Shown here piece after piece: positions 33,401 to 50,800 of a DNA stretch of 64,000 nt. The stretch is taken from positions 1 to 64,000 of IMG/VR virus record IMGVR_UViG_3300001765_000263. One strand, written 5' to 3'. Each line of letters begins with the position of its first letter. Positions within the stretch are counted from its first letter, which is position 1. Source of the stretch: a virus. Lineage: Duplodnaviria; Heunggongvirae; Uroviricota; Caudoviricetes. Below the pieces are notes generated by a model. It ran no database searches. It worked only from the letters and a program-made list of their open reading frames with translations, and was not told where the DNA came from. A program made the translations under genes and the position numbers.

Positions 33401-36400
33401 TAAGATAGACAATCGTCTTAAAAACGCGGAGTATTATGTTGCTCTTACATCATTAGAAAGAGAGACAAGCGAACTTCAAATCAAAGATGAAAACGGTTTG
33501 GATAGATATAAAAATGGTTTCATCATTGATCAGTTTAAGGATCATGGTATCGGCAATATTTCAAACGTTGACTATAAATGTGCAGTTAGCCCAAAAGAAT
33601 TAGAGTGTCGTCCAACATATTACGCAGATAGCATAAAATTATTTGAAAACCTAGCAACTTCTAGAGCATCTAAACGTTATCAAATTACTGGTGATTTAGT
33701 TACTCTTCCATACACAGAAGTTCCAGTGATTGAACAAAAAATTGCTACAAGTGCAGAATATATTACTGCATATGCAAAGATAAGATCAATGACAGGAGAT
33801 TTAAAGTTATATCCTGCAGGTGACACATGGGTCGATACTGAAACCTTGCCAGAAGTTACACAACAAAGTGAAGGAAATTTCAACGCACTTCAAATACTTG
33901 CTCAATCGACCGGCATTTTGGGGGTAGTGTATGGAGGGTGGAAAGTAGACTCTCGCACCAACATAAGTTCTAACGTTAGTGTTGGTCAATCATCATCAAC
34001 AGTAAATAATGCCTTTGGTGGGTCTGCAACAACAGTTGTAACCACTACAACACTAAATGGTACAGATTCTGTTGATTTATCAAGAGAGGGGGTTGATACT
34101 CAAATTGCAGAGAGATATGACGAGGTTGGTCGTGTTACCGGTATTGTTGACCAATCATGGTCTCCTGCAATGCGCGAGAAAGCAATTGTGCTCTATTGCA
34201 AGAAGATGATGCCACTTACACCATTTGATGCATATATTGATAATATGCTTTTGACAAAATATATTGTTCCTGCATCAACAATATATTATACCTCAAAAGT
34301 AGGAAATTTCCTAGATTATTCAACATCAGATATTGATCATACTGACTTAGTGTCTCGTCAATATGGTGTGAATGAATATGACATTCTAGAACGTGGTGAG
34401 GTCATTGTTGGGCAAACATCAAACGCAACTGCAATTACAATATGTGAAGAAAGACAAAACACTAATGGTGTTGTTGAAGATGTTCTTAGGGTAGTCAATA
34501 TTAAAGGAACCTTTGTATTAGGCGAAACCATTACAGGTCAATCGTCTGGTGCGACTCTTAAATATGATGGAGTGAATACAGACTTAGTTATAAGAACGAC
34601 AAGTTCTGGTTCATTTTATGGTATTTTCATGTTGCCAAACAACGACGAACATTTGATTTACTCTGGTATTGTTACAGTGTCATTACGTAATAATCCAGAA
34701 ATGAAAGAGTCGAGCACGAGTGCTGAAGCAGCATACGATGGACATGGACTAGTACAACAAAAGCAAACTACTGTCATGTCAGTTCGTAATGCAGTATTAA
34801 TTCAAACTGATATACATGAAGAAAAAACGGAAATACAAAATTGGAGCAGACCAATATCATCAACATCGTCAACCTCTTTGTCTGGACCGCAATCTGCACC
34901 ACCCCCACCACAAAACTGTCGAGCACAAAACTGTGGTGGAGGTGGAGGTGGAGGTTTTGGAGGTGGGGGGAGAAGTTTAAATTGTAACTGTTCTGGACTG
35001 ACTGACCCATTGGCACAGACATTTATGCACAATGATCGTGGTGGTATCTTTATCACGTCAATGGATATATTCGTTCATACTTTAGATACAGAATCTTCTG
35101 CTGGAATTATTTTGCAGATACAAGAAGTGGTTAATGGATATCCAGGTCAAACAGTTGTTCCATTCAGCACTGTTACAAAACTAAATCATGAAATAAACGC
35201 ATCTTCGACAACGTTAGTGCCAACAAATTTCAAATTTGAGTCACCAGTATTCTTGAAAGAAAACACAGACTATTGCTACATTTTATCTACTGATCAATCA
35301 AATACAAAAGTATGGGTTGCTAAGATGGGTGAAGTTGGTTTGGATGGTCAAGTAGTTGTCAAACAACCAAATATGGGGTCGTTCTTCAGATCACAAAACG
35401 CATTAACATGGACATCTGATCAAATGGTTGATGTTTCGTTTGTGTTATACAAGGCAAAATTTGATATTAATGGTACTGGAACGTTCTCAATGAAGAGTTC
35501 AATTACAGATAAACTCTTAGTTGCATCAAACCCATTCAAGTTTACTGACGGAGAAAAATTAGTTAGGGTGTACCATAGGAACCATGGAATGGTGAATGGA
35601 AGTTCTGTAACATATAGTGGAGTTGATATTACTGGTTCGTCATATCCAACAAAAGCAGTTATGAATTCATCATTTATTATTTCTAATGCTGAACTTGATA
35701 CATACACAATTACGTTGCCATCTGCTGCAGAAAAATCTGGTTTGTTTGGTGGTGGTTCTGTCAAATCTACAGTGTGTAAGAGGTTTGACACTGCGTATTT
35801 AAACGGATCCGATTTTGTTTTGCCAAGTACGCACATTGATTATTCTATTAGAACAAGTATTGAAGGAACTAATAGAGTGTATAGATCACCAACATCTAGT
35901 ATTATTCAAATCAAACAAGATTTACATTATGATGTCCCTCAATTTGCATTGTCTCCAGAGAATGAAAGACTGTTCTTAAATGGTGATGCATCATTGAATG
36001 TTGAGGCATTCTTGTATAGTAACAACGAAAATGTATCACCAGTTATAGATTTCCCAACATTTGCTTTATTTGCTATAAGTAATAAGATCAACAATCCTAC
36101 TGAAGATTTGAATTTGGAAATTGACAGTCAGGGAATCATTAACTTAGCACAACCAGATGTTGGTGGTGTGGTTGAAGTTACACTTCACAGCATAATAATA
36201 TCTGGAGCATTTGTTCCTTCTCTAGTAAATCGTTTGGATATGTTTAGAGTTGGGAAGTATATTTCTATTCAATCAGAAGAGGCAGCACCAGTACCACCAA
36301 GAAAGATTGTGAAACTAGACAAACAGTATTCATCAAATTATTTTGAAGTGTTTGTTGATCCATTAGATACATTACAATTTAATGCGAACACTGGTCTTGT

Positions 36401-36839
36401 AGATCCAGTAACGATTTTCCAATACAATCATTATACTGATGTCATTTCACCAAATGCGACAAGCAACCTTGCAAATTATGTAACTCGCATTGTTACTTTG
36501 AGCAAACCATCGACTGGCATTAGAATATTGTTTGACTATAACAAACCATCAGAGTCTTTCATTGACATCTACTACAAGGTATGTATGTCTGCTGATTACA
36601 CCGATTTAGAAAAAGTGAACTGGATAAATCTGGAAGAAAACTCATCACCAAAGGTTGAGTATAAAGATAGTCAAAACTACAACACCTTCATTGAACATGA
36701 GATAAATATATCTGACATATCTGAAATAACAGACGCATATTCTGAATATGATCAAATAATGGTGAAGGTTGTAATGAGATCTAACAATACTGCTAGATGT
36801 CCAAGAATCAAGAATTTCAGATTGATTGCACTTGCATGA
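30456..36839 (+). CDS. giant modular fibre/baseplate-appendage protein (about 2127 aa). Modules: N-terminal anchor (APYYDDFD...), shared module B, a Cys/Gly-rich linker, then the DPLAQTF C-terminal module.
   Basis: Probable ATG at 30456 with AAAGGA upstream (the track's 30432 start is a TTG). The first approximately 450 aa are paralogous to the 36847 gene. aa about 870-1130 and about 1500-2127 are paralogous to the 40599 gene. Confidence 0.6.
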   Translation: MTVNLNVAPYYDDFDPSKNYHKILFVPGRPIQARELTQIQSILQHQIKLNGDYIFKNGAMVIPGGVSYLNKVQYIKLESLFNGVVTDDIIANISGKKIVGESTNVKATVVHVEPSTNTDTPTIYIAYTSGGIVGSTSYKEFTINEVLHLETDTDIKFQIKNHSTYTGFGTLASIREGVYYINGFFVQNLAQTISLDKYGTTPSYKVGLDVVENIVTATDDASIRDNAVDSPSYGAAGADRLQIILTMNKTPLFATEENVNNTTDSFIDLLHVKDGYEQFKIDKTELGEFEKTLARRTFDESGDYVVEPFDIKIHEYRNNFRGEWTVNTVYLEGDIVTTNTSDNDYAPTDTSYFVAENSGVSGTAGIIFNSTSVEQYNDGGYIVWNYERKPKFNDGLFQPQLTESLDTQIENSLKAAYKIAGGKAYIKGYEISNPGYKIVDFNKARAYKNVPNSNVNTTMGQYFLIHNLQGLSYSQYQQLDLFDSLGVQIGTCIYKNLDFHRLGVGGPETNQYKLFVFDIQMIEGNYIEQIKTIAGSGFTCYVYGERKKGTGSVSFDGTDIFTGTGTLFTTELNAGDIIYVDDSRFVVASVSSSIELIVDDTQLPDTLPTGYYPFYTDKTAVYGTPGYIKKLNHNSVRSVRGSDDITVETTYYVNRLFIENSNTNVITITLTNPNESFASDQLEGNFLATQGSNFPVLGVSDGIFTVSGPTLNILTVTGFDNFSGIYIQTTIKKVNSAAKEKQYLKDSDIKYVNTLSQANADEIPLNGVALKLSGVYQAADFIFDFSLPDAIVDPGHIGYYTIDVTKNYVIGSNDTQNYTTASYLKPVNGFIPSGPILIVYEILQPQTNGDYFSINSYNDVPYADMPTYNGTSIGDYIDFRPVKEYDPNPLFVSQSEAISSRYPFTLDYSAYLPRYDIVQLDPSGNFRIEEGIPSDKPVAPIQNDNNVIISYAKLSPYTIKADTNNIILKMNDLRRYTMRDIGKIDNRLKNAEYYVALTSLERETSELQIKDENGLDRYKNGFIIDQFKDHGIGNISNVDYKCAVSPKELECRPTYYADSIKLFENLATSRASKRYQITGDLVTLPYTEVPVIEQKIATSAEYITAYAKIRSMTGDLKLYPAGDTWVDTETLPEVTQQSEGNFNALQILAQSTGILGVVYGGWKVDSRTNISSNVSVGQSSSTVNNAFGGSATTVVTTTTLNGTDSVDLSREGVDTQIAERYDEVGRVTGIVDQSWSPAMREKAIVLYCKKMMPLTPFDAYIDNMLLTKYIVPASTIYYTSKVGNFLDYSTSDIDHTDLVSRQYGVNEYDILERGEVIVGQTSNATAITICEERQNTNGVVEDVLRVVNIKGTFVLGETITGQSSGATLKYDGVNTDLVIRTTSSGSFYGIFMLPNNDEHLIYSGIVTVSLRNNPEMKESSTSAEAAYDGHGLVQQKQTTVMSVRNAVLIQTDIHEEKTEIQNWSRPISSTSSTSLSGPQSAPPPPQNCRAQNCGGGGGGGFGGGGRSLNCNCSGLTDPLAQTFMHNDRGGIFITSMDIFVHTLDTESSAGIILQIQEVVNGYPGQTVVPFSTVTKLNHEINASSTTLVPTNFKFESPVFLKENTDYCYILSTDQSNTKVWVAKMGEVGLDGQVVVKQPNMGSFFRSQNALTWTSDQMVDVSFVLYKAKFDINGTGTFSMKSSITDKLLVASNPFKFTDGEKLVRVYHRNHGMVNGSSVTYSGVDITGSSYPTKAVMNSSFIISNAELDTYTITLPSAAEKSGLFGGGSVKSTVCKRFDTAYLNGSDFVLPSTHIDYSIRTSIEGTNRVYRSPTSSIIQIKQDLHYDVPQFALSPENERLFLNGDASLNVEAFLYSNNENVSPVIDFPTFALFAISNKINNPTEDLNLEIDSQGIINLAQPDVGGVVEVTLHSIIISGAFVPSLVNRLDMFRVGKYISIQSEEAAPVPPRKIVKLDKQYSSNYFEVFVDPLDTLQFNANTGLVDPVTIFQYNHYTDVISPNATSNLANYVTRIVTLSKPSTGIRILFDYNKPSESFIDIYYKVCMSADYTDLEKVNWINLEENSSPKVEYKDSQNYNTFIEHEINISDISEITDAYSEYDQIMVKVVMRSNNTARCPRIKNFRLIALA

Positions 36840-36846
36840 GGTAACT

Positions 36847-38607
36847 ATGCCAAAAGAGTTTAATGCTGCACCATATTATGATGATTATGATGAAAGCAAA
36901 AATTATCACAAAATAATCTTCAACCCTAATGCGACATTGCAGTCGAGAGAATTAACACAACTGCAGTCTGTTATTCAAAATCAGGTGGAGCGTCTCTCGA
37001 ACTTTACCTTTGAAAATGGTGCAATGGTAATACCAGGAAATATATCCTACATCGGCAATTCGATATGTGTCAAGATTGATAAATTGTACAATGGATTATC
37101 CGTGGCAAACTATATTGGGACTATGACAGATAAAATTGTCGTAGGTAGTGACACCAATGTACGAGCAAAAATATATCATTCTGGTGTAGACTTGGATTCT
37201 GCTTATGTATTCATTTCATATATTTCTGGTGGTATTGACTCTTTTGGAACTCATCATGCAGAATTTGTTCAGGGAGAAACTTTAACATTACTAGACAAAA
37301 GCAATTCAATCAATGTGTCTAATGAAGAAGAGTTTTATTCTTATGGTTCTCTAGCTACAGTAAATGCGGGAGTTTATTATTTTAACGGATATTTTGTAGA
37401 GAACCAAAAACAAACTATTACAATAGACAGATACAGCACAGAACCATCTTGCCAAATTGGGTTTAATGTTGAAATTCAATCCGTATCATCAATTGATGAT
37501 GAATCACTGACAGATAACTCTTCCGGTTTCAACAATCCTGTTGCTATCGGTGCAGATAGAATGAAAATTGATCTTGTTTTAAGTAAGCACGATTACTTTT
37601 CTACATTAACAAACATCAAATTTATATCACTTCTTAGAGTCAAAGATGGAACAATTCAGTCTATTGTTAATAAGACACAATTGAGTAGAATGGGAGACTT
37701 GTTAGCAAAGAGAACATATGAAGAATCTGGAGATTACTTAGTAAAACCATTTAAATATGAACTGTTTGATTATAGAGATAATAGACGTGGTGAATGGGTA
37801 GGGAAAACTGCATATCTTGCTGGAGACATTTGTCAAATTGAAGCTAACGGAAATGTGCTAACCTTAATGGCATTGTCTGACGGCATATCTTCCTCAGTAA
37901 AACCAAAAGAATCAATCGGAATAATAAAAGACGGAAGTTTAAGATGGGTGGTAACATCAAAACCATATTATAACAAAGGATATGCATCACCATCGAATAC
38001 AGACACCCTAGAACAACATATGGAAAATGCAGACCTCGGTGTTTTAAAAATATCTGGTGGTCAAGCATATCTTCGTGGCAAGGATGTTGATTTAAGAAGT
38101 GGATTTAAAACTGTGGTTTTTACAAAAGCGCGGGATTCTAAAAAAATGGATCCATTTTATGTTGAATCTCCTGTTGGTCAATATTTGTTGGTAACAAAAG
38201 TAATAGGATTGCCTGTCATAACTACTGTAGATGAAACCAACTATGCGCTTAAGACACATAATATATTAGATCAAGGTGGTGGAGTTATTGGGTCATGCAA
38301 AGTAAGAAATTTTGAGTTCCATGCATCAAGCAAATACATTTTTGACAACAACACTTTTAGTGTATATAAAATCCATGTGTTTGATATACTATTTCTTAAT
38401 GGAAAAAGTCTAGGGAATGATGCTGCCTATATAGGTTCTAAAGATGGAACTTTTTTGGCAATGATAACAGGTGATTTATTACAACTGCCTGGGTTTATAA
38501 ATAGGTCGACAAATATTGGTAACGATAATATCTTTGCTGGCACAGGGAATGTTCTGAACAATCATCTTAAGGTAAGAGATAAAATTTATGTTAAAGAGAA
38601 TGTGTAA
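36847..38607 (+). CDS. paralogue of the giant fibre protein's N-terminal about 590 aa, carrying the same N-terminal anchor module (APYYDDYDESKNYHKIIF...RELTQLQS)
   Basis: ATG at 36847 with GAGGT upstream (the track's 36826 start is a TTG). Similarity to the 30456 product is collinear over hundreds of residues (GVYYFNGYFVENQKQTI..., ESGDYLVKPF..., RRGEWVGKTAYLAGDI). Confidence 0.55.
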   Translation: MPKEFNAAPYYDDYDESKNYHKIIFNPNATLQSRELTQLQSVIQNQVERLSNFTFENGAMVIPGNISYIGNSICVKIDKLYNGLSVANYIGTMTDKIVVGSDTNVRAKIYHSGVDLDSAYVFISYISGGIDSFGTHHAEFVQGETLTLLDKSNSINVSNEEEFYSYGSLATVNAGVYYFNGYFVENQKQTITIDRYSTEPSCQIGFNVEIQSVSSIDDESLTDNSSGFNNPVAIGADRMKIDLVLSKHDYFSTLTNIKFISLLRVKDGTIQSIVNKTQLSRMGDLLAKRTYEESGDYLVKPFKYELFDYRDNRRGEWVGKTAYLAGDICQIEANGNVLTLMALSDGISSSVKPKESIGIIKDGSLRWVVTSKPYYNKGYASPSNTDTLEQHMENADLGVLKISGGQAYLRGKDVDLRSGFKTVVFTKARDSKKMDPFYVESPVGQYLLVTKVIGLPVITTVDETNYALKTHNILDQGGGVIGSCKVRNFEFHASSKYIFDNNTFSVYKIHVFDILFLNGKSLGNDAAYIGSKDGTFLAMITGDLLQLPGFINRSTNIGNDNIFAGTGNVLNNHLKVRDKIYVKENV

Positions 38608-40583
38608 TGGCTAATGTATTTAGAAAATATAAAGTAAGTGGGTTTGAAACATTTACAGAAAATTCAATGACTGTTGATCCTCTTATAGAAAACGGATACT
38701 TAGTACAGTGTGAGGTGTTTAAAGAAAAGCAGATTGCTACATTAGGAGATGGAGATTCTTTAGTTGCAAAATTGCAGCATGAGTATATTAAAAACACTCA
38801 TGATGAAGATGGAAAATCACAACTAGTGTATTATGTCAATAGAACATTTCAAGCTAGGGCAGATGGATATGGAACATTATCTATATCATTAAACACAGAA
38901 GGTGAAACTTTTCCAGCAGAAAATCCTGAATTATTTTTGGTTTCTCGTGTCGTAAATGATGGGGAATACGGGGTATATACTGCACCGGAACATATTGAAA
39001 ATGACGGGGTTGGGGTAAATTCAAATTCAAACGTGTATTTAAACAGTGACTTCACTAGGGCATATTTTGAAGGATTAAGTGGTGGGGACGAATATAGAGT
39101 TATCGCCACTGTTAAAAAAGAAGGTAGTGCAGTAAGAGAGAAAACAAAAACACTTAACACAAAAACCATCTTTATAAATAAACTTTCAAAGTGTAGTAAG
39201 ACTGAAATACAATTAGGTAAGGCAGACGTTGTTGCGTTACTGTCTGTAAAACAATCAAGTGGTGAAAAGTTTAATCCATCAAATCCAGACACATTTTTGC
39301 CGTATGTTGCTACAAGTGAGGTGGATGTCAGTGATGCATATAAACTAGACCCAAAGACAACCGAAAATTTTTATGGTAATAGTACCATAGTCTCTGTAAA
39401 AGATTTCACTCCTGCTGCACCACTAAAAATAACCTTTTTATATTATGAACACTCTGACGGTGATGTATATACAGTAAATTCGTATGATCATCTACTCAAT
39501 TTTATTCCAACATACTCAAACCTTTCTCTCGGATCATGTTTAGACTTTAGACCAAAAGCATCTAGTTTAAATATATATTATGAAGATGAGACAGGTGGGC
39601 AGACTGATAATGACGACGACCCAACTACACCAACAGAATCATCACAGAATAAAACTATATGGGCAATTGGCGGCGAACAAGGATGTCAATTAGGAGTTGG
39701 CAACCATTTGGTTGAACAAATTGAACAAATTGGACCAGATCTTGGCAATACGTGGTCACAAATATCTGTTGGATATCCACATGGTATGGCAATTAAACAA
39801 GATGGGTCGTTATGGGGATGGGAAACTAGAACTAGTGGTGGTGATGGTGCAATAGATTATTTTCCGTTAGGATTGCCATCAGTTACTATGCCAGAATGCA
39901 CAATATTTCAAATATTACAAGAAAATATTGATTGTAATTTGAAGACTGCTGACTACGATCCAACAATACAAGACTGGAATTGGAAGATGGTTGCTTGTGG
40001 ATATAACACTACAATTGCGGTCAAAACAGATGGTACATTATGGTCAGTTGGTCTTAATGATGTTGGGCAATTGGGGCAAGGTGATACAACAAATAGAATA
40101 GAATTCACCAGAATAGGAACAGAAACAAATTGGGATAAATGTTACATGGGGAATAAATCTGCTGCAGCAATCACTAAAGATGGAGATGTGTTTACTTGGG
40201 GAGAAAATACAAACTGTCAATTAGGGTTAGGGCATACAAATACTGTGTATGCTCCAGAACAAGTAGAGTTTGATGCTGATCCAGACCACAATGTCAAGAT
40301 TAAAGAAGTATCTATTTCTGTAAATGGACTATTTATGACTGCAGTTAGTCAAGCAGGTGGTATATATGGATGGGGGTATGACGAATTTGGGACTCTATTT
40401 CCACAGTGTGGTGGTGGAAGTGGGGAAAGTGGGGAAAGTGGTATAACTGCTATATGCACCCCATGTAGATTTGGTAAAAAATGCGATTGGGATAATATAT
40501 CGTCAGGAGACAATTTCATTGCAGCAATCAAGACAAATGGAACAATATGGACTTGGGGTGGAACTGGCGAAAATCCACCATGA
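38607..40583 (+). CDS. structural protein with a unique N-terminal half (about 330 aa) and a C-terminal RCC1-like beta-propeller region
   Basis: ATG overlaps the previous TAA. C-terminal blades include VACGYNTTIAVKTDGTLWSVGLNDVGQLGQGDTTNR... and VFTWGENTNCQLGLGHTNTVYAPEQV. Confidence 0.55.
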   Translation: MANVFRKYKVSGFETFTENSMTVDPLIENGYLVQCEVFKEKQIATLGDGDSLVAKLQHEYIKNTHDEDGKSQLVYYVNRTFQARADGYGTLSISLNTEGETFPAENPELFLVSRVVNDGEYGVYTAPEHIENDGVGVNSNSNVYLNSDFTRAYFEGLSGGDEYRVIATVKKEGSAVREKTKTLNTKTIFINKLSKCSKTEIQLGKADVVALLSVKQSSGEKFNPSNPDTFLPYVATSEVDVSDAYKLDPKTTENFYGNSTIVSVKDFTPAAPLKITFLYYEHSDGDVYTVNSYDHLLNFIPTYSNLSLGSCLDFRPKASSLNIYYEDETGGQTDNDDDPTTPTESSQNKTIWAIGGEQGCQLGVGNHLVEQIEQIGPDLGNTWSQISVGYPHGMAIKQDGSLWGWETRTSGGDGAIDYFPLGLPSVTMPECTIFQILQENIDCNLKTADYDPTIQDWNWKMVACGYNTTIAVKTDGTLWSVGLNDVGQLGQGDTTNRIEFTRIGTETNWDKCYMGNKSAAAITKDGDVFTWGENTNCQLGLGHTNTVYAPEQVEFDADPDHNVKIKEVSISVNGLFMTAVSQAGGIYGWGYDEFGTLFPQCGGGSGESGESGITAICTPCRFGKKCDWDNISSGDNFIAAIKTNGTIWTWGGTGENPP

Positions 40584-40598
40584 AACAAAGGAATATAA

Positions 40599-43500
40599 AT
40601 GGCTAACGAATGTTTAGGATGGGAACAGGACAATCTTCTTTTCGATACAGATGATGATGATTGGGGGCAAAGAGGTTGGCCACTCGATGAGTGGAAAGGT
40701 ATATCAGCAGGATATAGAAATATTCTCGCTATTAAAAAAGATGGAACATTATGGACATGCGGGGATATTGATGCATGGCAAATAACTGGAGACGGATATC
40801 CAGTAATGATAGATGAATCTACTGATTGGTCTTTTGTCGGTAGTTCTTATGATAACGAATGGGGGGAAATAGTTTTATATGGAATGAAAACCTTATCTAG
40901 TTCATCAGAACAAGAAGTATTGACAGACACAGATATAGAATTTAAAACAGACAATAACACCGACATTGTTAGGTTAGATACCTCTGACCCATCAACAACA
41001 AATATCGGTAGTTTTGTGTATGCAAAACATTTAGGGGACGCATCAGTTCCAGAACCATTGTCGTCTAAATTTCCAATTCAGATAGCATATGATTATTATT
41101 TACCAAGAAGAGATATTTTAGAAATAAATGACAAGGGTGGGTTTAGATTGGAGCAAGGAATATCTGGTGATACTCCTGCAACACCAATGACCAATGAAGA
41201 TTATACTCTTTTGGCAAAATTAGAACTTCGTCCTTACAATGCAAATGTTAAAAATAGCATTAGCATAAAAGAAGACCCAATTCGCAGATATACCATGCGT
41301 GATATTGGACATCTTGAAAAAAGACTTGAGAACACAGAATTGACAATATCATCAATTGCAGTTAATGATGTCACAGCATCAATCAAAACTCTCGATGAAA
41401 ATGGATTGAATAGATTTAAATGTGGGTTCTTAACTGATACTTTTACTGATCATGCGAAATCCAATGTTGCAGATCCATCATTTAAGGTCGCAATTGATTA
41501 TATGAAACAAGAATGCCGTCCTACATACTATGCAGACAATATTAAATTGATTGAAGCAGATAAGAACCTAAGAAAGAACAACTTCTACACAGTGTCTGGT
41601 GATCTAGTGACATTGCCATACATAGAGGTAGAATTCCTTGGGAATATGTACGGGTCAACACCTCAAAATATCACACCTCTAACAAATATTAGAAGAAAGA
41701 ACGGGACGCTCAATATTTGGCCAACCTCAGATTCATGGATGTCAACAGAGCAGACGGCAGACATTAATCAGATAAGTGATGGCAACTACACGTCAATGAA
41801 ACAGATTGTTGACAAATTGGATGTCACTGGAACTGTTTATGGTGCATGGACAGAAGTTGACAAAAACATCGAAGTAACTGGCAATACAACAAGAACCGAA
41901 ACTGTCGGATGGACAACCAACACAATAAACACACAAACTGGCGTAATAACGACTGATTTTATACGAGAAGGTGAAGAAACATATGCTGAAGAGATAGAGA
42001 CTGAAATTGGTAGAGTCAATCTTATGCAAACCTCTGCATGGGATGAACACATCAGATCAAGATCAATCGTGTTATATGCACAAGGGTTCTTACCACAACA
42101 TAATATGTTTGTGATTGTTGATAACTACGACCTATCTGAATTTGTTGAACCTGCTAGAAGTATTGCATACACATCGAAAACTGGAACATTTTTAAACTAT
42201 TTGAATTCATCGATAGATCATTCGAATCTCGAATATAGACAGTATGGAGATAATTCATACAATATTCTAGAACGTGGTGAAATAGTTATTGGACAAACAT
42301 CTAATGCTTCTGCGATATTATTGAATGATGAATATGGCAATTTAAAAGTTGTTAATGTCAAGGGTGATTTTTCCGTTGGGGAAATTGTTTTGGGAATGAC
42401 CTCTGGTGCATCAGTTGTTATTAGCGGGTTAAGTGATGATTCATTACAAACGAGTCAATCAGGAACATTTTATGGAATATTGAATCTTCCGTCAGATTCT
42501 AAACATAAAATTTATAGTGGCATTATGCCAATTGTGATAAGAGATAGTTTAATTGCAGAACAAGCAACCACATCAGGGTCAGCAACTTATGATGCACATG
42601 GTATATCAAATACTGCAAATACCACAATTATGTCAGTGAAAAATTTGGATGTTGGCAAGAGAAAGATTATTGAGACAAACACTACTGTCGAAAACTTTTC
42701 CACATCAACTGTCGTGTCCTCAGTGATTGATTGGGCGGCATTTATTGCTGCTAATATTCAAGCTGGAGATGGAGGTGGAGGTGGAGGTGGAGATCCACTA
42801 GCGCAATCATTCCAAATTCAATCAGACGCGGGTGGAGTGTTTATAACTCATATTGATTTATTTGTGTATAGTGTTAATCAAACAGAACCAGTGTTTTTGG
42901 AAATTAGAGAAATGTTCAACGGATTTCCATCAACAACAGTAGTTCCCATGAGTACTGTGTATAAAAATGTGGAAGATCTAACCCCATCTACGACTGAACT
43001 TATACCAACATCATTTGTATTTGAATCCCCAATATTCCTTAAGAGTGGCACTGAGTATTGTTTTGTCATTGGTTCCCCATATATGGGTGATCAAGGTGTT
43101 GAAGTGTGGGCATCTGTATTAGGTGATGTTGATATCTATGGCAACACTACAATAGACCAACCATCTTTTGGATCAATGTTTATATCTCAAAATGGTTCAA
43201 CATGGGATGCTGAACAATATAAAGATGTGTGTTTTATGATACATAAAGCACAATTTGATACTACCAACGTAGGTCAAGTGATGTTTGTCAATAATAAATT
43301 TGATTATGACAAGATGGATATTGATCCTATAAGGGTAAAAACCGGCATAAGTGAAGCAAGAGTATTACATAAAAATCATGGGTTTGTTGTAGGGGATGCA
43401 GTCACTATTAACGATCCAAACGATGAATTGGTTGGTAGTACGAGTTTTTCTGCTATTACAAAGACATTTAATATTACAAATACGACGTTAGATTCTTTTA

Positions 43501-44570
43501 TGATACCGATCAATGCTGCAAGCATGGATGTTTGGACTGGAAAGAGTTCTATATCTCTCTCCACCAACAAGAAGTTTGATGAATTGTATCTTGATGGTAG
43601 AGATTTTGTTTTACCAAATACTCAAGTCGAATACAGATTCAAGAAGACTACGTTAGCAAGAAAACTTGATACAATGTATTATCCAATTAATCTAAAACAA
43701 ACATATGCCCTTGACGATTCTGGATGGATTCTCTCTGAAGAGAATGAAGATCTTTTCTTAGATGGAGAAAAATCCTTCTATACAAAAGCACTGTTATATT
43801 CGTCACATCCTGATGTGTCGCCCGTAATTGATTTGTCAACATACTCCGTAAATTGCATAACAAACAGAATTGACAATATGTTGCCCGAATATAGTAATAG
43901 ACAAGTTGATGATGTTTTAATTCATGATGGCACAAATACATATGATTTTGAGGTTGTTGATGATGGACTTTATATCATAACCTGTGATGGTATTAATGAT
44001 AAATTTAAAGTTGGTGGTGTTATATATTTTACCGGTGGAGATGCCCCATGCTTAAACACTAACATTGACATGATAATTATTAATAAAACAGCAACAACCA
44101 TATTGGTTAAACCTGTCAATGATGTAGAGATTTTACAAGAAGAAGTAATACTAGATGCTGATATGGACATTCATCAGTATGATTTTTATGTGGATTCTGT
44201 TTCCCCAACATCACAGTCAAACGCAGCAAGTTATGTTCCATTAACATTTACAACAACAATACCTGCAAAAGGGTTTATCATGTTGTTTGATTATAACGTG
44301 CCAACATCTACATCTATTAGACTTTTCTATAAGACATCCCACACGTCGAAAATAGAAGATATAAATAAGAAGTCGTGGGTGGAATTTCCAGAAGAAAATG
44401 TTACTCCTTATATAAATTCATCTAATCCAACGCATTATATTGAAAAGCGCATTGATATTGATACAATCGATGACACTTTTGACACGTTATCAGTAAAGGT
44501 TGAATTTAGATCAGACATCACTACGAAAATTCCAAAAATCAAAAACTTTAGAATATTGACGGTGGTCTAA
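40599..44570 (+). CDS. mosaic fibre protein (1323 aa): a short N-terminal RCC1 segment, shared module B, a poly-Gly linker, then the DPLAQSF C-terminal module
   Basis: YLPRRDILEINDKGGFRLEQGISGDTPATP / RRYTMRDIG / ECRPTYYADNIKL / GDLVTLPYIEV match the 30456 product. GGGGGGGDPLAQSFQ...VFITHIDLFVY...FNGFPSTTVVPMSTV... and the C-terminal PKIKNFRILTVV match its C-terminal module. Confidence 0.6.
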   Translation: MANECLGWEQDNLLFDTDDDDWGQRGWPLDEWKGISAGYRNILAIKKDGTLWTCGDIDAWQITGDGYPVMIDESTDWSFVGSSYDNEWGEIVLYGMKTLSSSSEQEVLTDTDIEFKTDNNTDIVRLDTSDPSTTNIGSFVYAKHLGDASVPEPLSSKFPIQIAYDYYLPRRDILEINDKGGFRLEQGISGDTPATPMTNEDYTLLAKLELRPYNANVKNSISIKEDPIRRYTMRDIGHLEKRLENTELTISSIAVNDVTASIKTLDENGLNRFKCGFLTDTFTDHAKSNVADPSFKVAIDYMKQECRPTYYADNIKLIEADKNLRKNNFYTVSGDLVTLPYIEVEFLGNMYGSTPQNITPLTNIRRKNGTLNIWPTSDSWMSTEQTADINQISDGNYTSMKQIVDKLDVTGTVYGAWTEVDKNIEVTGNTTRTETVGWTTNTINTQTGVITTDFIREGEETYAEEIETEIGRVNLMQTSAWDEHIRSRSIVLYAQGFLPQHNMFVIVDNYDLSEFVEPARSIAYTSKTGTFLNYLNSSIDHSNLEYRQYGDNSYNILERGEIVIGQTSNASAILLNDEYGNLKVVNVKGDFSVGEIVLGMTSGASVVISGLSDDSLQTSQSGTFYGILNLPSDSKHKIYSGIMPIVIRDSLIAEQATTSGSATYDAHGISNTANTTIMSVKNLDVGKRKIIETNTTVENFSTSTVVSSVIDWAAFIAANIQAGDGGGGGGGDPLAQSFQIQSDAGGVFITHIDLFVYSVNQTEPVFLEIREMFNGFPSTTVVPMSTVYKNVEDLTPSTTELIPTSFVFESPIFLKSGTEYCFVIGSPYMGDQGVEVWASVLGDVDIYGNTTIDQPSFGSMFISQNGSTWDAEQYKDVCFMIHKAQFDTTNVGQVMFVNNKFDYDKMDIDPIRVKTGISEARVLHKNHGFVVGDAVTINDPNDELVGSTSFSAITKTFNITNTTLDSFMIPINAASMDVWTGKSSISLSTNKKFDELYLDGRDFVLPNTQVEYRFKKTTLARKLDTMYYPINLKQTYALDDSGWILSEENEDLFLDGEKSFYTKALLYSSHPDVSPVIDLSTYSVNCITNRIDNMLPEYSNRQVDDVLIHDGTNTYDFEVVDDGLYIITCDGINDKFKVGGVIYFTGGDAPCLNTNIDMIIINKTATTILVKPVNDVEILQEEVILDADMDIHQYDFYVDSVSPTSQSNAASYVPLTFTTTIPAKGFIMLFDYNVPTSTSIRLFYKTSHTSKIEDINKKSWVEFPEENVTPYINSSNPTHYIEKRIDIDTIDDTFDTLSVKVEFRSDITTKIPKIKNFRILTVV

Positions 44571-44761
44571 TGGATAAATTATCAAAGCGAAATGGGGTTG
44601 TTATAAACAATGATACTGCAGCATATGACAGGTATATGACAGAGAGGAACAAACTGAAAGCAGCAAATAATGAGATGAATATCTTAAAAACCAGAATAAC
44701 CAAACTGGAATCTGAAATGGAGGATGTTAAGGTTATCCTTAAACGATTGATAGAAAGATAA
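44570..44761 (+). CDS. small coiled-coil protein (63 aa) directly upstream of the radical-SAM gene
   Basis: ATG overlaps the upstream stop. Heptad-like sequence ...NNEMNILKTRITKLESEMEDVKVILKRLIER. No Cys. Confidence 0.4.
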   Translation: MDKLSKRNGVVINNDTAAYDRYMTERNKLKAANNEMNILKTRITKLESEMEDVKVILKRLIER

Positions 44762-44765
44762 TATA

Positions 44766-46145
44766 ATGACTAAATTTTTTGTGCATGGTGAAAGTTGGGA
44801 TAACGGTGATAAAAAGGTGTTTGTGTATGATAACGAATATTCTACTATCACATATAACGGCGAAAAGATAGATGTTTCAGAGTTTGAAGAACTATATAAA
44901 ACTGACAGGCAATATAACAAAGCGAGACAATTTTCGGCAGATATGCCAATTGGAAAAACCAAAGATGTAAGTGTATTAAAAATCCAACTTGGTCTCAAAT
45001 GCAACTATACATGTGATTATTGTAATCAGGCAGCACATATAGAGGGTTCCATAGACTTTACTCCAAAGGACATTGAGAAGTTTATGGAGACAGTGAAATC
45101 TTTGAATATGCAAGGGGTAACGAGGATTGAGTTCTGGGGTGGCGAACCATTCGTGTATTGGAAGACGATGAAAGAACTCACTAAGAAAATACGCAAGATA
45201 AACAAAACTGCTCAATTTTCTGTCATCACCAATGGGTCGATATTGTCAGACGAAATCATAGATTTTCTTGACAAATATGATTTTAGTGTGTCCATATCCC
45301 ACGATGGAAAGAATCAGGCAGTCAGAGGTCTAGATCCTCTTACTGATCCAGTCAAGAAAAATCTCATTTTGAAACTGTTCGCTCGTCTGCATCAAAAACG
45401 CAGGATCAGTTTTAACTCTGTATTGAATTCAAAAAATAGAAGCAGAACAGAGTTGGTCGATTTTTTTAAAAATGTTACAGGGGCAAAGGATGTTGTTGTA
45501 GGAGAAGGAACCTTTATCGATGCCTATACCGATAGCAGTCTGGAATTGATGTTATACGACTATCAGGACTTGATGAATTACAGGAAGGCAACATTTTCAG
45601 AAATGAAGAAACTCAGTCGAGAAAGTGTGCCAATGTTCGACATGAAAATTGGTGGGTTTATAAGTTCAATCGTAAACGGCATACCATGGAACACTATTAC
45701 ACAAAAATGTGGTATGGATTCACCAGAGACATTGGCAATCGACATGGAAGGTAACGTTTTAAGTTGTCAAAATGTAAGTGCTAACATGAAATCCTTCAAT
45801 GGCAAATCACATAATTTAGGAAATGTCAAGGATATTGATAGTGTCAAATTGAACACTGGAACACATTGGTCATTTCGTGATAGTTGCAGCAAATGTCCCG
45901 TATTGCACTTGTGCAGAGGATCATGTTTTATGTTAGAGGGGAAGTATTGGGATGCGTCTTGTGATAATGCATATAATGACAATGTTGTGTTTTTCATGTA
46001 TGCATTTGAGATTTTAACTGGTTATATACCCTACTGGATAGACGGTCCTATGGATATGCCAGAGTGGAGAAAAGACGTTTTGGGTATGGAATACCCAGAT
46101 TTAACTCGAACTAGACATAAAATAATACCAATTAAGGAAATCTAA
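44766..46145 (+). CDS. radical SAM enzyme with a C-terminal SPASM domain (anSME / peptide-maturase-like)
   Basis: CNYTCDYCN gives the CxxxCxxC triad. GGEPF is the glycine-rich SAM motif. Also TNG and ISHDG. Auxiliary-cluster cysteines are QKCG...GNVLSC and then CSKCPVLHLCRGSC (Cx2Cx5Cx3C), plus a trailing ...ASCDN. An N-terminal extension of about 85 aa precedes the core. Confidence 0.8.
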   Translation: MTKFFVHGESWDNGDKKVFVYDNEYSTITYNGEKIDVSEFEELYKTDRQYNKARQFSADMPIGKTKDVSVLKIQLGLKCNYTCDYCNQAAHIEGSIDFTPKDIEKFMETVKSLNMQGVTRIEFWGGEPFVYWKTMKELTKKIRKINKTAQFSVITNGSILSDEIIDFLDKYDFSVSISHDGKNQAVRGLDPLTDPVKKNLILKLFARLHQKRRISFNSVLNSKNRSRTELVDFFKNVTGAKDVVVGEGTFIDAYTDSSLELMLYDYQDLMNYRKATFSEMKKLSRESVPMFDMKIGGFISSIVNGIPWNTITQKCGMDSPETLAIDMEGNVLSCQNVSANMKSFNGKSHNLGNVKDIDSVKLNTGTHWSFRDSCSKCPVLHLCRGSCFMLEGKYWDASCDNAYNDNVVFFMYAFEILTGYIPYWIDGPMDMPEWRKDVLGMEYPDLTRTRHKIIPIKEI

Positions 46146-46148
46146 TAC

Positions 46149-46156
46149 TATAAATA
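46149..46156 (+). promoter_or_regulatory. T4-type late-promoter-like box, TATAAATA
   Basis: Exact TATAAATA 29 nt upstream of the ATG at 46185, in a 39-bp intergenic gap. Confidence 0.35.
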
Positions 46157-46184: not shown

Positions 46185-47888
46185 ATGACAACACCAATAG
46201 TAAATAAAAGCAGTACATTAGAAGAGTGGAGACAGATCACTAATCAAATATCAAATGGGATTGGTGATCTATCATCCATATACACCACAGATATTCCAAA
46301 CAATACAGGTGTTGAATATACAAATACCTCAGACACATATTCATATGTAAAACCACCCTTTCATGTAAATTTAATTCAGAATACGTTAAACAATCTGAAT
46401 GCTCGTAAGGTAAAAAGATCTGGCGACACAATCACAGGGCATCTAAACATCCTGCAAAATTTTAATGTTGTTGGTACTACTAAATTAGAAGGACCGTTAC
46501 AGGTAGTTCCTAGTGGAAGTGGCGCAATAGAATTAACTACTACAACTGGCAATATTGATATATCATCAACTGGTACAGGTGATATATCCATCAGTACAAC
46601 TGCTGCTGGTGGGGTTCTCTCATTATCATCTTTTGCTGCTGGCACAATCAACAATCTATCAATTGGTGTTACCACTCCATTAGCGGGTAGATTCACCACA
46701 TTAACCGTAGATACTAGTGCTGACATTACCCCTTCTGGAACAATAGTAATTAATCCAGGTACTGCTTTAGGGTCAGCAATCGATAACATGGAGATTGGGA
46801 CTACTACACCAGCAGCAGGGGCATTTACTGCATTAACAGTAACTCCTGTGACAGGATTTGCTGTAGAGATTGCACCATTCGATGCTGGTACAATTGACAA
46901 CATGGAGATTGGGACTACCATTGCTGCAGCAGGAACATTCACTGATTTGACAGTTACCACTAACTATACAATATCACCGTCTGCAACTGGCACTTTAGAC
47001 AATGTAACAATTGGTGCAACCACTGCTGCCGCAGGAACATTCACAAGCGTCACATCAGACAGCATCACTGCACGTACTACAGATAGTAATTTGACAATAT
47101 CTAGCAATGGAACTGGACTGATTGTTTTAGACGACCATGTACAAATTTCTGCATTATGCAATTTTGATCATTCTTTATCTACTGGCACGTTCAAGACTAG
47201 TTCTGGTGCAGTATCAATTAATGGATCAGTTACAGTTGCTTCACCAAAATCATTTATATGGGGTGCAAGTTCTTCAGTATCAACATCATCTGGAACATCA
47301 TCTGGAACAACTGCAACAGTTAACACATCAGGAAATCATAATCTAATTACTGGAGATTATGCAACAATTACGGGTGTAACTCCTGCTGGTTATAACGGTA
47401 CTTATCAAGTAACAAGAGTTGATAATGATACAATCACATATACTACTATAGGTTCTAGCATTGGGGCAATTTCAGTTCAGGGTACAGTTACAACTTCTGG
47501 AATTTTTGATATGAGCACTAGTTCTGGAACGTTCAAGACTAGCACTGGCACAGCAACCCTTAACGGATTCACATCATGTGCAGCATCATTTGGTCGTGGC
47601 ACACCTGTCACAAAAACTGCAGATTTCTCCGTAGGTACTGGTGAAAATTGGTTAATCAATAACAAATCTGGTTCAACATGTATAGTAACATTGCCAACAG
47701 CAAGTTCATTTACTGGTAGAGAAATAACCATTAAAACAATTCAAGCACAGACTGTTGTGTCAAATGCCAATAACGTAATTCCTATAATTGGTGGTTCTGC
47801 TGTTTCTGCTATTGTGGCAGCAACTTCAGGAAAGTGGGCAACTCTTGTATCTAATGGAACCAATTGGGAAATTATGGCACAAGGATAA
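46185..47888 (+). CDS. tail-fibre-like protein with four tandem repeats of about 37 aa
   Basis: RSGDTITGHLNI is a fibre-type motif. Repeats I(N/D)N(L/M)(S/E)IG(V/T)TTP(L/A)AG(R/A)FT(T/A)LTV occur four times. Thr/Ser/Gly-rich beta-rich composition. Confidence 0.55.
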   Translation: MTTPIVNKSSTLEEWRQITNQISNGIGDLSSIYTTDIPNNTGVEYTNTSDTYSYVKPPFHVNLIQNTLNNLNARKVKRSGDTITGHLNILQNFNVVGTTKLEGPLQVVPSGSGAIELTTTTGNIDISSTGTGDISISTTAAGGVLSLSSFAAGTINNLSIGVTTPLAGRFTTLTVDTSADITPSGTIVINPGTALGSAIDNMEIGTTTPAAGAFTALTVTPVTGFAVEIAPFDAGTIDNMEIGTTIAAAGTFTDLTVTTNYTISPSATGTLDNVTIGATTAAAGTFTSVTSDSITARTTDSNLTISSNGTGLIVLDDHVQISALCNFDHSLSTGTFKTSSGAVSINGSVTVASPKSFIWGASSSVSTSSGTSSGTTATVNTSGNHNLITGDYATITGVTPAGYNGTYQVTRVDNDTITYTTIGSSIGAISVQGTVTTSGIFDMSTSSGTFKTSTGTATLNGFTSCAASFGRGTPVTKTADFSVGTGENWLINNKSGSTCIVTLPTASSFTGREITIKTIQAQTVVSNANNVIPIIGGSAVSAIVAATSGKWATLVSNGTNWEIMAQG

Positions 47889-47894: not shown

Positions 47895-50800
47895 GTGACT
47901 TGGAAAGTTAATGGTGTTGATATTGATGATGTCTTCTTAACTGAAGATGAAATCTCTACGATGAAATTTAATTATGTTAATGGGACATTTGTAACTAATG
48001 TAGATTATAGCCAGCCAGTAGTAATAGGCACATCGAATACTTTTAAATCTGCTAAATCTGACAAAACCTCTACATCATGTATAGCAGATGGAAATACATT
48101 AAATATAGTTTCATCAAATTATAACGACACTATATTTTCCAACGTCAATATAACACCAAATAATATATTTTTTTATAGTAGAGCAAAAAAAAGTTCTTTT
48201 TATTCATATTATAGACGTTCCCATGTATATTCTTTAGGTTTAAATCAGTATGGACAATTGGGGCATGGCGACACTATATCTAGATCATCTCCAACACAGG
48301 TTGGGGCATCAAGTGATTGGAATCAAATTGTTGGTGATATAACAACATATGGTATTAAAGAAAACGGCACGTTGTGGTCATGGGGAAAAAATACCTATGG
48401 ACAATTAGGTCATGGTGATAATATTCATAGATCATCACCAACACAAGTCGGCACGTTGAGTGATTGGAATTATGTTAATTTACAGTTAGAATCTTCATTT
48501 TTTATTAAAAATGGCACACTATGGGCATGCGGGTATAACACCTATGGACAATTAGGTCATAGTGACAATATTCATAAGTCAATTCCAACACAGGTTGGTG
48601 GTCATATTTATTGGGAAAAAGTTTTCTGTGGAGAAAATAGTTCAATCGGAAAATTAAAAGATGGCAGTATATGGTCTTGGGGCAATAATAAATATGGGAA
48701 ATTGGGGTTAGGTAATAAGATTCATAGATCATCACCTGTTCAAGTTGGGAATGAAAAAAATTGGAATGTTATTAGTTGCAATTATAATAATACAATGGCA
48801 ACTAAAAACAATGGAACATTGTGGGCATGGGGAGATAATACCCAAGGACAGTTTGGGCAAGGTGACACAATTCATAGATCATCACCAACACAAGTTGGGA
48901 CATCAAGTGATTGGAGTACTGTATCGTGTGGAAATGCACATTTTGCAGCAATTAAAAATAATGGCACATTATGGGGTTGTGGCGACAATAGATCAAACCA
49001 ACTTGGTATTGCTAATACCGAAAGATATTCATCACCAATACAAATTGGTTCATTGAGTAATTGGAAAGCATTAAACTGTGGATATAATCTATCATTATAT
49101 ACAGATAACGATACTACTTATTTTAGTGGAAATAATCAAAACATAATCAGTGTTACTGGAACACTTAAAGATGTAAATTATAATTACTCTAGTGATAAGA
49201 TTAATGGAAAAATACACTCTAATGGTATTATAACACCTAGTGGCAAATTATATTGTTTTGGTTATGGTGGTGGTATTGGAAATATGTACGATACCACGTC
49301 TTCTAGTCCATATATAAAAGAGTATGGTCAGGGAAATTTTGATTCATTTCACGACAATAAAAGATATTTAACTGCAAAAGATAATAATGGTGGACTGTGG
49401 GTTTCCCAATTTTATCAAGTTCAGGATTATGTTGTTGGACCTAGAACATTTCAAGACGTTAATATAAATGACTCTATAATTACCAGTGTTAATAGTGAAG
49501 CTGACCAGGTTTTTTCTTATGTGAAATCTGATGGCACATTGTGGACTGCAGGGACAAATGGATATGGTGAATTAGGAATAGGTCAATATATACTACATAG
49601 ATCTTCCCCAACACAAGTTGGATCATTAAGTGATTGGAGTTATACCAGTACAGGAAGAAATACATTATTTGCTATTAAAACTAATGGCACATTATGGTCA
49701 TGTGGATATAATTATAATGGGCAATTGGGGGTATTTGAAACAAGCAACAGATCGTCCCCATGTCAGGTAGGATCATTAAGCAATTGGAAAACGTGTAAAT
49801 CTTCTCAGAATTCTGTGTGGCTAACGACAAATAATAATGAACTATTTGTTTTTGGTAGCAATCAAGATGGATTACTTGGAATAGGAAAAACAAATGATTA
49901 TAGTGTAGTTTCTTCACCAGTACAAGTTGGATCTTCAATATCCACGTATAATAGTGGAGGAATTTTGGCATCTTATATTAAATCAACAGACTCGACAGTA
50001 TGGGCATGGGGAGATACATCGAAATTAATTCCAGGCACATCTACTGGTCAATTATCACCGATATTGATTGGATCTTATTCTAAGATAATGCATAGTAGTT
50101 CAACAACAGATACATGGTTAATTAAATCTGATGGCACATTGTGGGCATGTGGTGGTAATACATCTGGTGTGTCTGGGTTAGGTGATACTATAACTAGGTC
50201 GTCACCTACACAAGTAGGAACATTGAGTGATTGGGGTAGCAGCACTTTTCCTAGATCCATGAATTATTGTATTTTATGTATAAAATCAAACGGTACATTA
50301 TGGGCATGGGGAGATAATTATAATGGGGCATTGGGACTTGGTGACACTATATCTAGATCATCGCCAACACAAGTTGGATCATTAAGTGATTGGAGTAAAG
50401 TTGCCTCACAAGAGAATGCTACATTATTGGTAAAAACAAATGGCACATTATGGGCATGCGGGTATAACCAATATGGGGTATTGGGATTAGGAAACACTAT
50501 TAATAGGTCGTCCCCAGTTCAAGTTGGGGCATTAAGTGATTGGAGTAAGGTGTTTGTTGATTATCATACCTTATCTTTTGCTATTAAGACCAACGGTACA
50601 TTATGGGCATGTGGATATAATTATAATGGGCAATTGGGGTTAGGTAACAAGATTCATAGATCATCACCTGTTCAAGTAGGTTCATTAAGTGATTGGAAAG
50701 ACGCAATAGGTAATTATTCAGCATCAGCATTTATAAAGACGGATGGTACATTATGGGGTTGTGGTTATGGTGGACAAGGATTAATAGGTAACGGCAGTAC

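Follow-up and report, generated by a model that had tools for sequence, protein, structure and literature searches.

Radical S-adenosylmethionine (SAM) enzymes with a SPASM domain are maturases known from ribosomally synthesised and post-translationally modified peptide (RiPP) natural products and from a few enzyme cofactors. We analysed a 64,000-nucleotide stretch of a Caudoviricetes virus (IMG/VR record IMGVR_UViG_3300001765_000263, positions 1 to 64,000; hereafter the window), in which a gene lying among baseplate and fibre genes encodes a radical SAM/SPASM enzyme of 459 amino acids (aa). Our best explanation, to which we assign a probability of roughly 0.6 as a whole, is that this enzyme is a maturase of structural proteins carrying (Asn-Cys)n repeats (NC repeats), that its target in the window is a segment of a 2135-aa VrlC-like protein, and that its chemistry, as inferred from related enzymes, is thioether formation.

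The families closest to the phage enzyme in sequence and fold form thioethers from Cys. CteB and other SCIFF maturases are among them, PapB forms six Cys-Asp Cβ thioethers, NxxcB forms a Cys-Asn Cβ thioether, and QhpD, whose target is a protein subunit and not a secreted RiPP, introduces Cys-Asp/Glu thioethers (PMC8326336). Under the action of StsB, three hairpin-type Cys-Gly sactionines arise in a CxCxC...GxGxG core (PMC10288494).

The phage enzyme resembles each of these systems in part. CteB, the SCIFF maturases and PapB act on short leader-core peptides with CX3D or SCIFF spacing, whereas the putative substrates here are large virion proteins with alternating (N-C)n; moreover, the phage enzyme scores far under the equivalog cut-offs of these families, no canonical PqqD-like RiPP recognition element (RRE) was detected in it, and it is found in the tail modules of phages and prophages. 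QhpD is likewise a SPASM enzyme that acts on a protein subunit, and its NCBIfam model aligns with the phage enzyme, but its substrate, which we take to be the subunit QhpC of quinohemoprotein amine dehydrogenase, and its operon are unrelated. In the StsB/StsA and BlaB/BlaA pairs a CxCxC donor run is followed by a Gly-rich acceptor, as in the VrlC-like junction NCNCACDC-GGGGGGGG. However, StsB is MftC-like and works with a separate RRE protein, most phage carriers of the repeat stop after it without a Gly stretch, and no sequence relationship of these systems to the phage enzyme was found beyond the superfamily. The anaerobic sulfatase-maturating enzyme (anSME/AslB) is the top structural match, aligns over its full length including the SPASM part, and also modifies a protein substrate (folded or unfolded), but the phage family lacks one of its auxiliary cluster I (Aux I) Cys residues and its catalytic Asp, and has no sulfatase or CxPxR motif nearby. 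Finally, NxxcB shows that a radical SAM/SPASM enzyme can join a Cys by a thioether to a carbon of Asn, although its spacing is N-x-x-C rather than N-C-N-C, it belongs to a streptococcal quorum-regulated RiPP, and it is not among the top NCBIfam matches.

Architecture and classification of the enzyme

The enzyme contains exactly ten Cys residues (79, 83, 86, 315, 334, 374, 377, 383, 387 and 399), and all ten are invariant in an alignment of 39 family sequences. The last seven form the canonical SPASM signature, C315-X13-G-X4-C334, C374-X2-C377-X5-C383-X3-C387 and C399. SxSHDG, CQN, an N-terminal F4/Y21-D22-N23 patch and a C-terminal IPIK tail are further invariants of the same alignment. In Pfam, the protein matched Radical_SAM (PF04055, 5e-14, 53.3 bits against a cut-off of 29.5), with the CX3CX2C motif that defines membership in place, and Fer4_12 above its own cut-off (4.9e-8). 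Since the ten-Cys pattern occurs together with WGGEPF, the enzyme has a complete radical SAM core and a canonical SPASM region, which agrees with what had been proposed in an earlier reading of this DNA made from the sequence alone (the sequence-only reading). The Pfam SPASM model (PF13186) gave no match at E<0.1; despite this, the region is aligned throughout by the NCBIfam SPASM maturase models and by anSMEcpe.

The stretch preceding the radical SAM core was first estimated at about 85 aa and measures ~65-78 aa. In the AlphaFold2 (AF2) model of the enzyme, which has a predicted local distance difference test (pLDDT) score of 91, residues 1-45 of this stretch are structured and consist of three β-strands and one short helix, a unit that may be a substrate-docking element. 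The recognition domain that the sequence-only reading had suggested for this stretch gained no support; a search of the enzyme for a PqqD-like RRE, which comprises three strands plus three helices, gave no Pfam match (PF05402).

The hidden Markov model (HMM) classification that the sequence-only reading had put forward as a check places the enzyme in the peptide- and protein-modifying SPASM group, the opposite of the metabolic family that the same reading had named as telling against it, and reaches no named subfamily. The best full-length NCBIfam alignments, SPASM part included, were those of PapB (1e-22), CcpM, anSME, DynA, QhpD and the SCIFF maturase, all of them Cys-directed peptide or protein maturases, and the scores were 4-8 fold under the curated cut-offs: 80.8 bits against 340 for PapB (NF047865), 62.4 against 349.45 for anSME (TIGR03942), 56.9 against 425 for the SCIFF maturase (TIGR03974), and 57 against 453 for QhpD (1.3e-15 over residues 68-388). 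Because every NCBIfam equivalog cut-off was missed, we regard the enzyme as a SPASM maturase of no named type, and no model for its clade was found in NCBIfam. The motif near the enzyme is (N-C)n rather than the CX3D/E of PapB, and a six-Cys SCIFF-type peptide of ~45 aa was not found beside the enzyme loci, where the repeat carriers range from ~90 to >2,000 aa. Fold comparison agreed with the HMMs and with profile-to-PDB alignment on a maturase-type SPASM architecture of the kind found in peptide and protein modifiers, as had been predicted. The AF2 model was nearest to CteB, ChlB, TigE and anSME; anSME was the top Foldseek match, and the structural alignment covered 344 residues with CteB and 304 with anSME. 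A metabolic or nucleotide-directed radical SAM enzyme was rejected as a classification, as QueE, MoaA and viperin align to the core alone with weak scores.

Among phage protein families, the enzyme matches the PHROGs profile phrog_1802 (E = 5.7e-57, 194.8 bits, residues 49-409), whose annotated members, at 41-43% identity, include those of Ralstonia phage RSP15 and Achromobacter phages JWF and 2-1. In a large protein database 1,256 relatives were found at E<=1e-10 in phages and prophages, nearly all of them unnamed and a few labelled 'AslB'. The window is a metagenomic contig (JGI 3300002026 MIS_10000120), and a megablast search with it against phage genomes gave no match, and thus no near-identical phage genome. 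When the family was aligned with anSMEcpe by profile-to-PDB comparison, there was no equivalent of C261, and an invariant Gln335 occupied the position of Asp277. In anSMEcpe we take the Aux I ligands to be C255, C261, C276 and C330, and Asp277 to be the proposed catalytic residue; these roles of anSME and CteB residues reportedly come from Goldman et al. 2013 and Grove et al. 2017. Because the C261 equivalent is absent and an invariant Gln replaces Asp277, the anSME label is unsupported. In addition, a sulfatase or C/S-x-P/A-x-R motif was not found beside the enzyme gene in the window or at any of 160+ loci; the neighbours are fibre and structural genes. Judging from these sequence comparisons, the 'AslB' and 'anSME' labels on database relatives are likely misnomers.

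Coupling of the enzyme family to (Asn-Cys)n repeat proteins

In the cultured phages RSP15 (a myovirus) and JWF (a siphovirus), the enzyme gene lies inside or adjoins the tail and tail-fibre genes. We compared 83 viral and phage loci, 80 of which were viral loci fetched around radical SAM homologues, with open reading frames (ORFs) called and clustered, and an independent set of 80 loci from bacterial genomes (L286-L365). The protein families nearest the enzyme gene were fibre-like or small and carried alternating-Cys runs such as NCNCNCNC, CNCACNCS and NCNCNCNCDCYC. A strict regular expression found such a run in 75/83 viral and phage loci, and a looser density scan with six-frame rescue raised this to 81/83. 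The two remaining loci, which have minimal motifs, were this window (RSLNCNCSG) and RSP15, where a fibre ends in LILSMSNTNCQCGN at its stop codon (an NCQC tail). The bacterial loci replicated the result, with a run in 66/80, and 11 of the 14 exceptions were contigs <7.5 kb. These loci come mostly from Burkholderiales, including cultured Limnohabitans and Paraburkholderia, and are therefore probably prophages. The enzyme and carrier pair is common in freshwater Burkholderiales (Limnohabitans, Polynucleobacter, Rhodoferax and Polaromonas) and in Ferrovibrio, sometimes with at least two copies per genome.

The coupling also holds in the reverse direction. When loci were picked by a DNA pattern for CNCNCNC, the enzyme family was present in 38/66 loci with the pattern in frame (within an ORF of at least 50 aa) and in 0/54 loci with the pattern out of frame (Fisher p = 1.3e-13). 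The radical SAM subclades follow the carrier classes, indicating co-evolution. Among 133 non-redundant carriers, the repeat contains 3-8 Cys (median 4), and its Cys are separated mostly by Asn (62%), followed by Ala (15%) and Asp (14%). In 115 of these carriers an Asn stands before the first repeat Cys, and in 76 the run ends within five residues of the stop codon. Adjacent repeat hexamers differ synonymously in 98 of 142 pairs. This synonymous variation within the repeats indicates selection on the peptide rather than on the DNA and rules out a DNA microsatellite artefact.

Based on these observations, the functional pairing of the enzyme family with NC-repeat proteins is well supported, and we infer that the repeat is the substrate and that the family very probably acts on NC-repeat structural proteins. 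This two-way co-occurrence with (Asn-Cys)n fibre-like proteins lends strong support to the earlier suggestion of a virion structural protein as the target of the enzyme.

The carriers themselves fall into several classes. Carriers of ~300 aa match PHROG tail-fibre families. Gp028 of JWF (L002, 6676-8127) is a gp36-like fibre with NCNCDCNCNCSC, in which the last repeat Cys is at the same time residue one of an intein-like Hint domain (Pfam Hom_end_hint, 3e-12, residues 308-344), so that self-cleavage would put the repeat at the mature C-terminus, as in other carrier classes. The class-A carriers (L004-L082; for example L007 ORF 24 and L016 ORF 29) are proteins of ~295 aa encoded directly downstream of the radical SAM gene. 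They combine 70 residues rich in Cys and Asn (up to ~20 Cys) with a C-terminal domain that is conserved and with a hydrophobic tail. No NCBIfam, Pfam or PHROG model was found for the class-A and class-B carriers, and class A was without any match.

Accessory genes also recur near the radical SAM gene. Among 81 loci (L003-L082), a 2-oxoglutarate (2OG)-Fe(II) oxygenase was present in 46, a PF05118 Asp/Asn β-hydroxylase in 27, a cupin-like 180-aa family in 27 and an EF-hand-like 125-aa protein in 24. Their products may be further modifiers of the Asn-rich repeat. When the window was searched with HMMs built from the loci, neither the accessory oxygenases nor the typical carrier families were found. 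Two loci (L049, 6965-8500; L053, 15778-17295) encode a second, unrelated radical-SAM-like ORF of ~505-511 aa with CIFRCRFC, eight genes downstream of the SPASM enzyme, and in L203 a histone-deacetylase-family gene (PF00850, 11894-12721) lies two genes downstream of the radical SAM gene.

The repeat motif of the window and its VrlC-like relatives

The 2135-aa protein of the window reads QNCRAQNC-G7FG4-RSLNCNCSGLT-DPLAQTF, with the motif just upstream of DPLAQTF. The motif has four Cys and one NCNC, and its longest strict run is two Cys, whereas the proposed 'NC-repeat fibre maturase' system is defined by a same-strand neighbour with an (N/A/D-C)n run of at least three Cys. The nearest relatives, at 54-60% identity, are L003 and L203/L204, and the clade shares the gene order DUF4815 giant, DUF4815 giant, 63-70-aa ORF and radical SAM gene. 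Both giants of L003 and of L203 carry an NC run directly before oligo-Gly and DPLAQ[ST]F, and the junctions read TNCNCACNCACDCGS-DPLSQTF, VVNCNCACDCG8-DPLAQSF, VVNCNCNCG-DPLAQTF and ITNCNCDCG5DG4-DPLAQSF. The window motif stands at the position orthologous to these runs. At the corresponding junction of the 1323-aa paralogue in the window, a Gly-rich stretch and DPLAQSF occur without Cys.

We used chance controls to evaluate the motif. Within-protein shuffling of the 26 plus-strand ORFs produced an NCxC anywhere in 73/2000 shuffles, and an NCxC with two more NC dipeptides within 30 residues upstream in 0/2000. Four Cys fell within 30 residues of the 2135-aa protein in 37/5000 random placements. 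We then compared some 160 further VrlC-like junctions sampled from contigs of viral and metagenomic origin. All but those of the L003 lineage, ~157 in number, read DTGW[YW]-DPLAQxF and were free of Cys. A radical SAM gene is nearby at 14 of these loci, which mostly have separate NC carriers; within the viral-contig set, each radical SAM-positive VrlC locus without Cys in VrlC has a separate carrier. A scan of metagenome contigs gave 80 more VrlC loci, none with a Cys insertion, and a homologue search with the VrlC junction segment gave two matches.

The sequence-only reading had named two candidate substrates. The interval 34888-35016 gained support, as it holds the motif at 34914-34991 that is orthologous to the L003 and L203 runs, and the 2135-aa protein is probably the target of the enzyme in this window. 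The other candidate, the 63-aa ORF upstream of the enzyme gene, was rejected. It has zero Cys, it belongs to phrog_473, and its homologue trails a VrlC-like giant in cyanophage S-CAM7, where no radical SAM gene turned up in the 9-kb flanks and no family member in any S-CAM7 record. On these grounds, the 63-aa ORF belongs with the giant protein and not with the enzyme.

Proposed mechanism and alternative explanations

The following mechanism is drawn by analogy with CteB, PapB, NxxcB, QhpD and StsB. The gene would encode a three-cluster radical SAM/SPASM maturase, expressed together with the late structural genes, whose substrates are structural (host-recognition) proteins of the phage rather than a free peptide or metabolite. 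The motif recognised by the family would be (N-C)n, its Cys separated by Asn, Ala or Asp and placed at the C-terminal end of fibres or, in the clade of the window, in the VrlC-like linker, so that the most likely target here would be the NCRAQNC-Gly11-RSLNCNC segment of the 2135-aa protein. The 5'-deoxyadenosyl radical would take a hydrogen from Cα or Cβ of an adjoining residue (Asn, Asp, Ala or Gly), and a repeat Cys, possibly held at the open site of Aux I, would bond to that carbon as a thioether. In CteB, Aux I has three Cys ligands and its open site binds the substrate Cys. Since the phage enzyme has seven rather than eight SPASM Cys, one Aux I site is without Cys. Several thioethers may then staple the repeat, either as a hairpin onto oligo-Gly in one chain or across the chains of a trimeric fibre, and the outcome would be a redox-insensitive covalent lock formed in the reducing cytoplasm. 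By analogy with these enzymes, we propose a thioether cross-link as the product only tentatively, at a little less than an even chance.

Here, we need to weigh several points that speak against this explanation. Genomic association does not by itself prove an enzyme-substrate relation, and the chemistry is not transferable by homology because no NCBIfam equivalog threshold was reached. Thioethers between directly adjacent residues would be unusual, and the repeat ends most carriers without a Gly stretch. The arrangement with the motif inside the VrlC-like protein (class E) was seen in three related lineages only and is weaker than the family-wide evidence. An unbiased 2x2 test within the VrlC family on viral contigs, with too few Cys-bearing lineages, did not reach significance by itself (p = 0.24); adding lineage counts gave p ~0.001, but the lineages are related and were partly chosen through the radical SAM gene. 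The window motif is degenerate, as described above, with none in the paralogue, and the enzyme could be a relic in the window or act elsewhere. Finally, the alternating Cys could form a metal or iron-sulfur binding ladder.

The last two points are explanations in their own right. In the window, the enzyme might leave the VrlC-like protein alone. Its target could instead be the co-transcribed 63-aa protein, a metabolite, or a different protein of the virion or the host, or the enzyme could be a functionless remnant whose substrate motif has eroded. The degenerate motif and its loss or original absence in one paralogue fit this, as do the distance of ~10 kb between the motif and the enzyme gene downstream, the lack of typical carrier and accessory families in the window, and the synteny of the 63-aa ORF with the radical SAM gene in all three class-E lineages. 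However, the 63-aa ORF is free of Cys and also occurs alongside VrlC in S-CAM7, a phage in which no radical SAM gene was found, and the leftover NC...NC...NCNC cluster is non-random and orthologous in position. Decay is disfavoured because the ten Cys and the other invariant residues of the window enzyme are all intact, and RSP15 likewise pairs a minimal NCQC tail with an intact enzyme. We therefore hold this explanation to be quite unlikely. If the repeat were a metal or iron-sulfur ladder in trimeric fibres, with the radical SAM enzyme linked to it only indirectly through cluster or metal handling or as an assembly factor, the alternating Cys on a β-strand would share one face, as do the HxH repeats of T4 gp37, whose iron sites were reportedly described by Bartual et al. 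2010, and the repeats are indeed located at fibre tips. Yet the conserved Asn, Asp or Ala between the Cys and the Asn before the first Cys (115/133) point to a role for the alternate residues, and every catalytic motif of a SAM-cleaving enzyme is invariant. To our knowledge, no radical SAM enzyme serves as a metal-insertion factor for another protein, and we regard the ladder as very unlikely.

The enzyme could also act on the same NC repeats by a chemistry that leaves no cross-link, such as conversion of Cys to formylglycine, epimerisation or C-C/C-O coupling, which would give reactive or unusual residues at the fibre tips. SPASM enzymes are chemically diverse, anSME is among the closest structures with a full-length alignment, relatives are annotated as AslB/anSME, and the Asp/Asn β-hydroxylase and 2OG oxygenase genes in many loci suggest several side-chain modifications. 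Nevertheless, chemistry of the anSME type fits poorly with a score of 62 bits against 349, with the missing C261 equivalent and the Gln at the Asp277 position, and with carriers that lack the C/S-x-P/A-x-R sulfatase motif; in addition, where the nearest families have Cys-rich substrates, these typically serve as donors of the thioether. Such a chemistry is in our view unlikely, and thioether formation on the NC repeat is the explanation that we prefer.

Gene neighbourhood in the window

The enzyme gene is surrounded by a T4-like baseplate and fibre module with gp2-, gp48/54-, gp5-, gp6-, gp25- and gp8-like genes and many RCC1-repeat proteins. The coordinates of the main features are collected in Table 1.

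Table 1. Positions of the enzyme gene, its motifs, the proposed modification site and neighbouring features in the window.
Feature	Position	Strand	Remarks
Radical SAM/SPASM enzyme gene, 459 aa	44766..46145	+	ATG start; phrog_1802 member
N-terminal β-β-β-α unit, residues 1-45	44766..44900	+	Conserved F4, Y21-D22-N23; AF2 model
CX3CX2C radical SAM cluster motif (C79, C83, C86; CNYTCDYC)	45000..45023	+	Invariant in 39 sequences
WGGEPF motif	45135-45152	+	Contains SAM-binding GGEP
SPASM region, seven invariant Cys (C315, C334, C374, C377, C383, C387, C399)	45708..45962	+	
SPASM part C-X13-G-X4-C (C315, C334)	45708-45767	+	
SPASM part CSKCPVLHLCRGSC (C374/C377/C383/C387)	45885-45926	+	
Last SPASM Cys, SCDN (C399)	45960-45962	+	
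Degenerate (Asn-Cys) motif NCRAQNC-GGGGGGGFGGGG-RSLNCNC in the 2135-aa protein	34914..34991	+	Proposed modification site
VrlC-like/DUF4815 giant structural protein, 2135 aa	30432..36839	+	Pfam DUF4815 1.9e-55; L003/L203 orthologues with NC repeat at the same site; proposed substrate
Two ORFs (593 and 658 aa)	36826..40583	+	N-terminal and middle parts of the phrog_358 profile
VrlC-like C-terminal paralogue, 1323 aa	40599..44570	+	Oligo-Gly and DPLAQSF junction (DPLAQSF at 42792), no Cys there
63-aa coiled-coil ORF	44570..44761	+	phrog_473 'virion structural protein'; zero Cys
TATAAATA T4 late-promoter-like box	44360..44367	+	~200 nt upstream of the 63-aa/radical SAM gene pair
TATAAATA box	46149..46156	+	29 nt upstream of the 567-aa fibre-like gene
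567-aa fibre-like protein gene	46185..47888	+	No Cys repeat

The phrog_358 profile is matched successively by the 593-, 658- and 1323-aa ORFs (36826-44570) at its positions 6-467, 589-858 and 817-1635. From this arrangement, the three ORFs look like a second VrlC-like gene in pieces, with an RCC1 insertion in the middle piece. The 63-aa ORF had been described as start/stop-coupled to the enzyme gene. The two genes are indeed close, with the stop of the 63-aa ORF 4 nt before the radical SAM ATG, but they do not overlap; the TAATG overlap is that of the start of the 63-aa ORF with the stop of the 1323-aa ORF. The 567-aa fibre-like protein encoded downstream was rejected as a substrate, having no Cys cluster or repeat.

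The box assigned earlier to the downstream tail-fibre gene was found as TATAAATA, though such boxes are no more frequent in the window than chance would give (8 observed, 8.2 expected). Seven of the eight copies are on the coding strand, and four (4437, 38496, 46149 and 62439, all on the plus strand) lie 30-110 nt before gene starts, positions that are, as far as the sequence goes, consistent with T4-type late promoters.

The fibre module makes unusually heavy use of the RCC1-like β-propeller fold, with at least seven large ORFs (phrog_7220/4219/16766) at 17180-18934, 38607-40583, 47895-53369, 53347-55167, 55164-56546, 56548-60363 and 60309-62438. Elsewhere in the window, a 729-aa ORF at 5554-7743 on the minus strand has no PHROG match and is opposed by a Cys/Trp-rich pseudo-ORF at 6068-7033, which suggests a low-complexity repeat gene.

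Biological meaning

In the full-text literature within reach, outside of which lay subscription-only titles, we found no published radical SAM modification of phage fibres or virion proteins and no account of NC-repeat fibre tails. A pelagimyophage study noted 'radical SAM cassettes' in a host-recognition cluster without analysing them. The type of enzyme is known, and its class of substrate, its setting and the biology that it implies seem to be new. The more general proposal is that tailed phages and prophages, both of Proteobacteria and in aquatic viromes, possess a radical SAM/SPASM enzyme devoted to stapling the (Asn-Cys)n 'zippers' in the tips or linkers of their receptor-binding fibres by RiPP-type thioethers. 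We put it forward as a real possibility falling somewhat short of probable. The cultured phages JWF and RSP15 and the prophages of Limnohabitans and Paraburkholderia make it directly testable.

If the proposal is true, these would be the first enzyme-made covalent cross-links of thioether-staple chemistry in virion structural proteins, and fibre stability and host recognition would depend on a factor so far overlooked. The phage proteins now labelled 'AslB/anaerobic sulfatase-maturating enzyme' would be reannotated as well. If the NC repeats are the substrates, they would provide a minimal repeat substrate for radical SAM enzymology and a possible genetically encodable stapling tag, would explain the widespread unannotated C-terminal NCNCNC tails of fibres, and would represent a new class of phage post-translational modification at the place where host range is decided.

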